Shown: piece after piece, positions 59,631 to 61,558 of the stretch
Numbering within the stretch: position 1 is the stretch's first letter
Layout: each line of letters opens with the position of its first letter
Assembly (NCBI GenBank): GCA_965116465.1
Contig: OZ220687.1
Span: 1,604,596-1,668,595, forward strand
Direction: 5' to 3'
Origin: Acidimicrobiales bacterium
Lineage (GTDB): Bacteria > Actinomycetota > Acidimicrobiia > Acidimicrobiales > CATQHL01
Length of the DNA stretch: 64,000 nucleotides
Made by a program: the position numbers and the translations under genes
Notes under the pieces: generated by a model
Seen by the model: only the letters and a program-made list of their open reading frames with translations
Database searches by the model: none
Told to the model about the DNA's origin: nothing

Positions 59631-60095
59631 TCAGCCGCGGAAGCGGCCGGCGTAGCCGATGCGCATCGCCGGCCGGAAGTGCCGCTCGGTTGTCTCGTAG
59701 ACGGTGCCCAGGATGCGGTCGAGCTCGTCGTCGTCGACATCGGCGGCGGCGATCTCGCCGAGCAGGAACACGGCGTCCTCTGCACCGATGGCGAACCGGG
59801 CGCCGCGCAGCTTGAGATTGTGCCGCAGGCAGTACTCGTAGAGTTGGACGCGGTTCTCCTCGGGGGCCGGCACGAAATAGGTCTCGAAGTGCAGCGAGCG
59901 CTGCTGCAGCGTCAACCAGATGGAGAAGACGGACTTCTCCTCGCCGAGCAGCCGGATGTACCAACGCCGCAAGGGTGGCTCGGCCCGCTCCACGCCGGCG
60001 ACAGAGGCGTCGGCGGCCACCTGGCGGGCGGCCCAGGCGTCTATGCGCCCTTCGATCTCGTCGAGTTCGGTCGGCGTCGCCGGCCGGCGCGCCAT
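59631..60095 (-). CDS. YbjN-like (type III secretion chaperone-fold) conserved hypothetical protein
   Basis: ATG at 60095 gives 154 aa and shares 1 nt with the mshA stop (TGATG). The mshA-adjacent position resembles mycobacterial Rv0487 (from memory). Confidence 0.55.
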   Translation of the reverse strand: MARRPATPTELDEIEGRIDAWAARQVAADASVAGVERAEPPLRRWYIRLLGEEKSVFSIWLTLQQRSLHFETYFVPAPEENRVQLYEYCLRHNLKLRGARFAIGAEDAVFLLGEIAAADVDDDELDRILGTVYETTERHFRPAMRIGYAGRFRG

Positions 60096-61306
60096 CAGGC
60101 CAGGCACTCCACGAGCCGGCGCCGGCGCAACCGGTCGTAGCAACCCGCCAGCAGGCCGGCGGTCGCGTCCCAGGAATAGCCCCTGGCGACAGCGGCCGCC
60201 TCCAGCGCCATCGCGGCGGCCGTGAGCCGATCCTCCAGGATCTCCTCCACCCGTTGAGCCCACGATCGGGGATTGCGGTCCGCCACGAGGTAGCCGGTGC
60301 GGCCGTGACGCACGAGCGTCCTGAGGCCCCCGACCTCCGCGGCCACCACCGGCGCTCCACAGGCCGCCGCCTCCAGCGCCACCAGTCCGAACGTCTCGCT
60401 CCGGCTCGGCACGAGAACCACGTCGGCGGCTCGGTAGTAGGTGGCGAGACGGTGGTGCGGCTGGGGAGCCACGAAGCGCACGCGCTCGGCAAGACCGGCG
60501 GTGGCGACCAGGCGGCGGGCCCGGATCAGCTCGGCCCGGCCCTGCCGGCCGCTGGGACCCCCCACGACGAGCAGCCGGGCACGCCCCCGATTGCCGTCGA
60601 GGGCATCCAGCGTCCGCACCGCCAGATCCAGGCCCTTCAGCGGCTGCACCCGGCCGACGAACAGCAGCACGGGCTCGGCGCCGAGCCCCAGGGCGCTCCG
60701 GGCGCCGTCGGGGTCGCCGGGTGAGAACAGGGCGTGCTCCACCCCCGGCGCCACGATCTGCACCCTGTCGGCCGGCGCGCCGTACAACTCCACCAGATGG
60801 TCCGTCTCGGTCGGTCCGGCAGCGCATATGACATCCGAGCAGGCCACCACCTCCTCCTCGGCACGGGCGCGATCCGGAGACTCCGTCTCGCCGAGACTCT
60901 CCTTCACCCGGCCGAGGGTGTGGAACGTCGTCACGAGCGGCCGGTCGAGGGCGTGCTTTATCCGGTGACCGGCGACCCCGGAGAGCCAGTAGTGCGCGTG
61001 GATGGCGTCGACGCCGCCGGACCGTCCGATGTCGGCGAGGACACCCTCGGTGAAGACGTCGAGGGTGCCGGCCAGCTCCTCCTTCGGGAGGTCGGGTGGC
61101 CCCGCCGGGACGTGGACGACCCGTACGCCAGGCTCCACGTGGATCTCCTGCGGCAGGTCGTCCCCGAAGCGGCGCACGTACACGGAGCATTCCAGCCGGC
61201 GATGCGCCAGTGCCGCGGAGAGCTCGCGCACGTAGACGTTCATGCCGCCGCTGTCGCCGGACCCCGGCTGGACCAGCGGGGAGGTGTGCAGCGAGATGAC
61301 CGCCAC
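60095..61306 (-). CDS. mshA: D-inositol-3-phosphate glycosyltransferase (mycothiol biosynthesis) - catalytic part
   Basis: It has the hallmark N-terminus [26 protein letters not shown] and a GT4 C-terminus ([21 protein letters not shown]). An internal GTG at 61306 would give 403 aa, but the frame is open upstream into a ThiS/MoaD-like domain. Confidence 0.85.
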   Translation of the reverse strand: [403 protein letters not shown]

Positions 61307-61558
61307 GTGACCGGTGCGGCCGGCTCCGCCGGACACGGGAGGCAGTGCGGCGATCTCGTCGCCGGCGGCGACGGGCTCCGACGGGTCGGCGGGCTCCCCG
61401 TTGCGCCAGATCCGGCAGGCGCGCAACTGCTCCTCGAACGCCGGACCGAAGCGGGCCGCAGCCGCCTCGAGCACCTCCGCGACCGTGGCGCCGCCGAGCT
61501 CCACGGCGCTCACGCCGGCAGCCTGGCGCACGGCGGCGAAGAGACGCAGGGTGGGCAC
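61307..61558 (-). CDS. ThiS/MoaD/CysO-like beta-grasp domain ending PPVSGG, in frame with mshA and with no stop codon
   Basis: The GTG at 61558 opens PTLRLFAAVRQAAGVSAVELGGATVAEVLEAAAARFGPAFEEQLRACRIWRNGEPADPSEPVAAGDEIAALPPVSGG. A 6-aa linker (AGRTGH) follows, then the MshA core. Confidence 0.6.

Follow-up and report, generated by a model that had tools for sequence, protein, structure and literature searches.

A MoaD/SAMP1-like Carrier Fused in Frame to a MshA-Type Glycosyltransferase in Acidimicrobiia, a Probable Precursor Cut after Gly-Gly

A single gene on the minus strand (60095–61558; 487 codons and a stop) of a 64,000-nucleotide stretch of an Acidimicrobiales bacterium genome (contig OZ220687.1), referred to here as the window, encodes a MoaD/SAMP1-like beta-grasp carrier of the ThiS family that reads directly into a glycosyltransferase of the MshA type. 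The gene was assigned from its frame, from Pfam, and from the identical architecture of 15 related loci (L005–L019). The fusion is real, conserved, and selected, and it is obligate for the translation of MshA in many genomes. From the sequences and by analogy with MoaX of Mycobacterium tuberculosis, the product is probably a precursor that is cut after Gly-Gly to release the carrier and MshA. A probability of roughly 65% is given to this reading.

Results

Architecture of the Fused Gene

The protein architecture was read from the DNA sequence using Pfam profiles for the domains, NCBIfam for the family cut-offs, and AlphaFold for the structural model. On the minus strand, no stop codon interrupts this frame between a point well upstream of GTG 61558 and the TGA at 60097–60095, and translation from this GTG yields 487 amino acids. 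Run on this protein, the PF02597 and GT4/MshA profiles matched both of the modules that an initial annotation of the window had proposed. The match to the ThiS profile PF02597 covers residues 5–78 with a score of 50.5 bits (84-residue piece) against a cut-off of 22.5 and an E-value of 3e-13. It spans profile positions 2–76 of 76 and stops exactly at ...GDEIAALPPVSGG, where Gly78 is encoded by 61327–61325. The ThiS/MoaD beta-grasp segment ending in PPVSGG is thus borne out by a full-profile match; it occupies residues 1–78 (61325–61558, minus strand), with Gly77-Gly78 at 61330–61325.

No stop codon follows PPVSGG. As the initial annotation had described, the six codons for AGRTGH (residues 79–84; 61307–61324, minus strand), a linker that varies among relatives, reach GTG 61306 and the N-terminus of MshA. 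The MshA-type GT4 (GT-B) glycosyltransferase domain, recognized by TIGR03449 and Pfam, extends over residues 85–487 (60098–61306, minus strand), and the Pfam domains Glyco_transf_4 and Glycos_transf_1 are found on residues 102–468. Since 409 residues lie behind PPVSGG in the primary translation product, the Gly-Gly is not a free C-terminus unless the protein is processed.

The AlphaFold model, calculated with a 52-sequence alignment, has a mean predicted local distance difference test score (pLDDT) of 90.6 and a predicted template modeling score (pTM) of 0.78, with two confident domains. The carrier module is modeled as strand-helix-strand-helix-strand-strand over residues 3–72 with a pLDDT of ∼90, consistent with a beta-grasp fold. 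Residues 76–80 (SGGAG) are the only stretch with a pLDDT of <50. An exact-sequence look-up of the 487-residue protein, and of the 520-residue version that begins at ATG 61657, returned no match. The closest record to the 487-residue protein is P0031, which was translated from a scaffold in the European Nucleotide Archive and is 99% identical over 487 residues.

Conservation of the Fusion

The conservation of the fused gene was scanned with one genome per species. The same architecture appears in 15 other metagenome-assembled genomes (MAGs) of Acidimicrobiia/Acidimicrobiales, at 82–90% identity to the fusion of the window. Multi-megabase records are among them: OY760933.1 and OZ242194.1, both titled "chromosome", and CAXXMX010000010.1. 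Several of the MAGs are presumably bins from sponge microbiomes, as judged from the isolate names alone. The carrier and MshA parts are in frame, 18 nucleotides apart, and without an intervening stop codon in 15 of 15 loci. The 487-codon open reading frame is intact in 14 loci; the frame of L019 counts 485 codons, and that of L018 is cut short by the end of the contig. The ratio of nonsynonymous to synonymous substitutions (Nei-Gojobori, 91 pairs) is 0.16 for MshA and 0.20 for the carrier, values that show purifying selection on both domains; for the six codons of the linker it is 0.46.

That the junction is an artefact of sequencing or assembly, or that the stop codon was lost recently in an inactivating event, was possible a priori, and nothing else speaks for this explanation. 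The identical in-frame junction is present in the 15 species-representative genomes, which separate projects assembled independently, as well as in about 25 protein clusters, and the reading frames are intact and under purifying selection. An assembly error, which the initial annotation had kept as an option, is excluded by these data, and the explanation as a whole has a negligible probability.

Two Clades of MshA Fusions

A search with the full protein returned both PF02597 and the GT4 domains in 74 of the 120 best clusters (90% identity clusters). PPVSGG is kept in all 74, which form two clades. Clade A, the group of the window, shows 76–99% identity, full-length proteins of 486–494 residues, and linkers of 6–13 residues that open with AG or SG. 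Clade B shows ∼50% identity, lengths of 493–498 residues, and variable linkers of 15–20 residues that open with Ser; its sources include Tara records, and the clade-B locus L086/L087 has a GC content of 43%. The gene order is common to clade A (L085) and clade B (L086 and L087): a divergent His_Phos_1 gene, the fusion, and then YbjN, proC, HTH_17, SAM_HAT, hemA, hemC, hemD, hemB, and hemL.

A neighbor-joining tree of the MshA domains was calculated with 200 bootstraps. All 200 replicates recover each clade as monophyletic, and none of the 200 contains a group that joins clades A and B. The MshA domains of clade A are 63% identical to unfused MshAs vs 52% to clade B. Because the two clades never group, clade A is nearer to unfused MshAs, and the linkers are unrelated, MshA was probably fused twice independently at the same locus. 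This conclusion is tentative, since the neighbor-joining tree is crude and the branch that leads to clade B is long.

Translation of the MshA Domain

Conceivably, the internal GTG (61304–61306, minus strand) could serve as a separate start for MshA, in addition to or instead of the start of the carrier; the window and roughly half of clade A have GTG at this position. The nearest GGAG, and the sole one there, is located 17 nucleotides 5′ of this codon, leaving no Shine-Dalgarno sequence at a usable distance; the initial annotation had likewise seen none that was convincing. The equivalent codon is GTT in L006, GTA in L007, CTC in L013 and L016, and CTT in L019; it is CTG in L008, L015, and L017 and TTG in L012. 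The next in-frame ATG falls within the conserved GGMNVYV core. At least five genomes therefore have no separate start codon for MshA, their equivalent codon being GTT, GTA, CTC, or CTT, and the clade-B linker (L086/L087) contains no ATG, GTG, or TTG. Ribosomes that translate the carrier would run on into MshA in any case. Separate initiation is thus very improbable, and the internal GTG, which is not conserved and has no usable Shine-Dalgarno sequence, is probably just a Val codon.

A −10-like hexamer, TACGCT, is located 6 nucleotides 5′ of the start codon GTG 61558 (61565–61570, minus strand). In an alignment of relatives, TACG(C/A)T is kept at this distance in 14 of 14 clade-A loci, and TAGTCT is found at the same distance in clade B. 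The position of the hexamer suggests a leaderless transcript. With a leaderless mRNA, the synthesis of MshA would depend wholly on the start codon of the carrier. A scan of 59900–61800 for sigma-70 promoters and terminators detected none, with a consensus that is ill-suited to an actinobacterium of 70% GC.

The architecture is visible in automatic Pfam annotation, and the proteins are named just "glycosyltransferase" or "MoaD/ThiS family protein", or are truncated. The NCBI protein from the L006 contig (P0056; JAPPDX010000024.1) is a truncated product of 382 residues that begins at the internal Met of GGMNVYV and lacks the entire carrier domain as well as the conserved strand at the N-terminus. 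The truncation was probably made because the fusion has no start codon ahead of the MshA domain. As a result of such names and truncation, many genomes of marine, sponge-associated, and freshwater origin carry incorrect records of the carrier and of the true N-terminus of MshA.

Fusion of the Same Carrier to Other Partners

The carrier is also found in frame with an RsiG-like protein in L077 (1924–2649) and L045 (2798–3583), where ThiS and RsiG (PF22802) were confirmed by Pfam. A search with the L077 protein returned 110 ThiS+RsiG clusters at 41–100% identity (P0151–P0262), one of them from the cultured species Desertimonas flava (P0253). The fusion to RsiG-like proteins is more widespread than the fusion to MshA. 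PP(V/I)SGG is present in 110 of 110 RsiG fusions; the next residue is Ala in 56 clusters and Ser in 54. When the 74 MshA and 110 RsiG clusters are taken together, the residue behind GG is Ala or Ser in all 184, and the sequence beyond varies freely. In a third case, represented by one MAG only (L039, 2340–3542), the carrier reads through GG and AGAGAGG... into a multi-pass membrane protein. This partner belongs to a 291-residue family with no Pfam match that follows the carrier gene in L001–L004. No description of a fusion of RsiG with MoaD was found in literature searches.

In two Microthrixaceae MAGs (MFD05502.bin.*), L037 (1801–3492) and L042 (1791–2951), the carrier frame is open for 386–563 codons. 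It crosses the membrane-protein gene out of frame and in L037 regains the frame of the RsiG-like gene. These two loci may represent real read-through; they were not counted as fusions because assembly indels may be the cause.

Unfused Carriers and the Origin of the Fusion

All of the 29 closest full-length homologues of the carrier stand alone, as proteins of 73–108 residues from Acidimicrobiales. The carrier of the window keeps 20 of the 20 positions that are invariant in an alignment with 20 standalone orthologues. In nearly all of the unfused Acidimicrobiales loci, the carrier gene lies 5′ of mshA on the same strand at a distance of 234–2739 nucleotides. The genes between them encode RsiG-like and XRE-type helix-turn-helix (HTH) proteins and, in some loci, the 291-residue membrane protein together with sodA. 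Among 58 unfused loci, the number of residues after GG is 0 in 17, 1 in 15, 2 in 24, and 6–7 in 2; 41 of the 58 carrier genes encode 1–7 extra residues behind GG.

Two loci illustrate how the genes approach each other. In L069 (about 4225–4270), GG is followed by TGA and the ATG of mshA is found 10 nucleotides further, which is the adjacent-gene state. In L021 (about 4225–4265), the TGA that follows GG is in frame with mshA, and CTG stands where L069 has ATG. For these two reasons L021 has no obvious start codon for mshA and is one substitution short of a fusion. The fusion is the end point of the shrinkage of a spacer in a conserved gene string, and it exists because the carrier gene adjoins mshA on its upstream side in this string of Acidimicrobiales. 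It would have arisen by the loss of the intervening DNA and the stop codon, repeatedly and with whichever gene lay downstream, so that the carrier gained MshA as a partner, probably on two occasions, as well as RsiG-like proteins and a membrane protein. Since the carrier is normally made with residues behind GG that need to be removed, loss of the spacer and stop would cost nothing. The suggestion that a carrier gene had lost its stop codon stands as evolutionary history. As a description of a defect it fails: the fusion is fixed and selected, and it is often the sole route to MshA.

Identity of the Two Modules

A profile of the carrier family was compared with solved structures. The best matches are Haloferax volcanii SAMP1 (E-value of 2e-10) and the MoaD/ThiS family protein 6jbz (4e-10), followed by Escherichia coli MoaD (2e-6), the putative MoaD2 6jc0 (2e-5), and CysO (3dwg, chain 3dwg_C; 0.12). 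The top NCBIfam families all score below their equivalog cut-offs: moaD (TIGR01682) at 46.8 vs 66.15 bits, moaD_arch at 45.7 vs 49.5 bits, and SAMP1 (NF041918) at 38.8 vs 60 bits. By these comparisons of sequence, the carrier resembles MoaD and SAMP1 rather than CysO.

The glycosyltransferase module matches the MshA family TIGR03449 at 384.9 bits over profile positions 2–402 of 406, and the next family is found 270 bits lower, at 114 bits. The score of 384.9 bits misses the MshA equivalog cut-off of 462.5 bits. The best solved structures for this module are 3C4Q and 3C48 (E-value of 2e-81), deposited as "Predicted glycosyltransferases", which we take to be Corynebacterium glutamicum MshA. The N-terminal motif HTSPLxQPGxGDxGGMNVY is common to homologues that are named D-inositol-3-phosphate glycosyltransferase. 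The genes mshB, mshC, and mshD were not recognized among the window genes examined, for which no dedicated search was made.

The initial annotation had also raised a functional coupling, in which a CysO-like carrier is tied to MshA for the supply of cysteine or sulfur to mycothiol. The carrier gene and mshA share a strand and are no more than 3 kb apart in almost every Acidimicrobiales locus examined, which agrees with this idea, as would the 1:1 coproduction that a fusion provides. The profile matches do not, with SAMP1, MoaD, and MoaD2 at 2e-10 to 2e-5 vs CysO at 0.12. No cysM, mec, MoaE, or MoeZ gene was found among the 20 scanned window genes or, in relatives of both clades, within 10-kb flanks. 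The genes that intervene in unfused relatives encode RsiG-like and XRE-type HTH regulators, SodA, and a membrane protein. Fusions of the carrier to unrelated partners are just as frequent, and those to RsiG-like proteins are far more widespread. The link from a CysO-type carrier through cysteine to mycothiol is not upheld by these results, and functional coupling is improbable.

Proposed Processing of the Precursor

In the proposed precursor model, two independently folding modules would be made from the one start codon, GTG 61558, probably on the leaderless mRNA. A carrier of the MoaD/SAMP1 type would need a free Gly-Gly carboxylate for adenylation and thiocarboxylation. A Gly-Gly-specific peptidase would cut between Gly78 and Ala79; by analogy this may be a JAMM/MPN+ enzyme or the protease that acts on MoaX. 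The cut would free an 8-kDa carrier (C-terminus ...DEIAALPPVSGG) and a 44-kDa MshA with AGRTGH as an N-terminal tail, while the uncut protein has a predicted mass of 52 kDa. Cleavage is favored because GG-Ala/Ser is invariant, the junction is predicted to be disordered, the unfused orthologues carry tails, and the partners are varied. The release of the carrier by a protease, one of the options in the initial annotation, is accordingly the best-supported reading of the fusion, with the cut itself deduced from sequence comparison.

Several points weigh against cleavage. Uncleaved, integral ubiquitin-like domains are common in eukaryotic proteins. The scores of the carrier below the MoaD, archaeal MoaD, and SAMP1 equivalog cut-offs give no pathway assignment. 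Neither JAMM/MPN+ nor E1 (ThiF/MoeB) genes were found by Pfam in 20 window genes, a set that leaves out the nuo and bc1-type genes, and none are present in the precomputed Pfam annotation of the 10-kb flanks of the fusion in clade-A and clade-B relatives.

Some of these observations can be read in favor of a permanent two-domain enzyme, in which the beta-grasp module is never released from MshA (or, in relatives, from RsiG-like proteins). As a built-in ubiquitin-like domain it might then promote docking, regulation, solubility, or stability rather than carry sulfur. Genes for a protease or an E1 were not found near the fusion, the carrier falls below the MoaD and SAMP1 equivalog cut-offs, both domains are confident in a model with a pTM of 0.78, and the occurrence of several partners could mean that the domain benefits them. 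Other features are not those of a hinge. The orthologue is a standalone protein in most Acidimicrobiales and ends at, or 1–2 residues past, GG; the tail of the PPVSGG type is invariant in 184 of 184 fusions, with Ala or Ser next and a linker that is otherwise free, which is the pattern of a recognition and cleavage site; and the junction is predicted to be the only disordered stretch. A permanent two-domain enzyme is judged unlikely.

A broader reading extends the precursor model to all of the fusions. Acidimicrobiia might use a bacterial counterpart of ubiquitin-fusion genes, with a MoaD/SAMP1-like protein as an N-terminal pro-fusion to unrelated proteins, and this would imply a dedicated, Gly-Gly-specific maturation protease that resembles a deubiquitinase. 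This proposal is tentative. Under it, the carrier may have the role of a SAMPylation-like modifier or may aid the expression or folding of its partner in cis.

Neighboring Genes and Other Features of the Window

A YbjN-like gene (59631–60095, minus strand) follows the fusion, and its ATG overlaps the stop codon of the fusion (TGATG); the homologue in L085 has the YbjN domain PF10722. A His_Phos_1 histidine-phosphatase gene (61640–62266, plus strand; PF00300, 137.5 bits) is divergent from the fusion. This gene keeps its position beside the carrier in clade A (L085), in clade B (L086 and L087), and in the unfused loci L001–L004. Its best NCBIfam matches are ribazole/acid phosphatase and GpmB-like families, all below the cut-off. 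To our knowledge, no gene is assigned to the phosphatase step of mycothiol synthesis (MshA2). The step is named only generically in a recent paper. It is a speculative possibility that the conserved histidine phosphatase is a candidate for MshA2. A gene for tRNA-Lys (anticodon TTT; 62274–62349, plus strand) lies directly 3′ of the histidine-phosphatase gene.

The only PALP-domain enzyme of the window (454 residues; 12406–13767), which is probably TrpB-like by its N-terminal sequence, is encoded beside a retropepsin-like aspartyl protease of 124 residues (13804–14175) on the minus strand (12406–14175). Both genes are far from the fusion, and there is no reason to link them with it. A YgjP-like metallohydrolase, encoded two genes upstream in L001–L004, was considered as the protease and set aside, being absent near both fused clades.

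By rough calls of open reading frames and their translations, two separate, long clusters of the nuo type (NADH:quinone oxidoreductase) appear to be present on the minus strand at 1700–12328 and 20393–35646. Two tandem GPP34 (GOLPH3-like) genes are located between them, at 18967–19614 (Pfam-confirmed) and 19719–20369. A plus-strand group at 45683–50067 encodes a fused ATP-sulfurylase/adenosine 5′-phosphosulfate (APS) kinase of 618 residues (PUA_2, ATP-sulfurylase, and APS_kinase); genes for a DUF1214 protein and a sulfotransferase come next. The group suggests sulfation that depends on 3′-phosphoadenosine 5′-phosphosulfate.

Discussion

The closest precedents for the proposed precursor are fusions of MoaD to MoaE. 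In M. tuberculosis, MoaX joins MoaD to MoaE; it is cleaved between Gly82 and Ser83, and without this cut it is inactive (PMC4326299). The MoaX protease is unidentified, and MoaD-type carriers need a free Gly-Gly carboxylate (PMC4326299). JAMM proteases cut the MoaD-MoaE protein of Deinococcus radiodurans and linear SAMP fusions; PfJAMM1 is reported to recognize SAMP2 regardless of the protein attached to its C-terminal Gly, and HvJAMM1, as cited there, cuts linear SAMP1 fusions (PMC8832034). The fusion of the window resembles MoaX and the D. radiodurans protein in its N-terminal carrier of the MoaD type and in an internal Gly-Gly followed by a small residue. It differs from the MoaX type in its partner: MoaE is the carrier's own catalytic partner, whereas here the partner is an unrelated glycosyltransferase and, in relatives, an RsiG-like or membrane protein.

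The carrier resembles H. volcanii SAMP1 in the ...PPVSGG end, and SAMP1 is its closest solved structure by profile (E-value of 2e-10). SAMP1 differs from the carrier in being archaeal, in being encoded free, and in its additional conjugation to lysines; at the locus of the window, no machinery for conjugation was seen. The glycosyltransferase resembles MshA of C. glutamicum and Mycobacterium, the enzyme of the first step of mycothiol synthesis, in its best, full-profile NCBIfam match and in the YbjN-like gene downstream. An N-terminal beta-grasp domain, as found here, is not reported for the characterized MshA enzymes.

In eukaryotes, UBA52 and RPS27A carry ubiquitin, which ends in Gly-Gly, N-terminal to unrelated ribosomal proteins, and the ubiquitin is released by a Gly-Gly-specific protease. 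The fusions of Acidimicrobiia are similar to these genes in that one protein of the ubiquitin fold has several different fusion partners at its C-terminal side. They are different in that ubiquitin fusions are eukaryotic and are processed by cysteine-protease deubiquitinases. The comparison implies homology neither of the partners nor of the proteases.

Fusions of prokaryotic ubiquitin-like proteins were catalogued in 2006 by Iyer, Burroughs, and Aravind, and include ThiS-ThiG, MoaD-MoaE, ThiS at the C-terminus of sulfite reductase, and MoaD with aldehyde ferredoxin oxidoreductase (PMC1779556). The protein described here shares with them a prokaryotic ubiquitin-like sulfur carrier in a multidomain protein and differs in having a glycosyltransferase as the partner; the word "glycosyltransferase" is absent from that catalogue (PMC1779556). 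No description of MshA with MoaD/ThiS, or of Acidimicrobiia with mycothiol, was found in literature searches, which agrees with the initial annotation in that no fusion of a beta-grasp protein with MshA had been described.

Linear fusions of Gly-Gly carriers are known only with their own partner enzymes (MoaE and ThiG) and a few redox enzymes. In the fusions reported here, the partners are unrelated proteins. If the junction is cut, a general Gly-Gly-specific maturation activity would be present in a whole class of Actinomycetota, with a bearing on the identity of the MoaX protease. A cut junction would also mark a simple evolutionary route from sulfur carriers to precursor genes of the ubiquitin style. 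The cultured D. flava, which has the RsiG version of the fusion, makes the question of processing testable.

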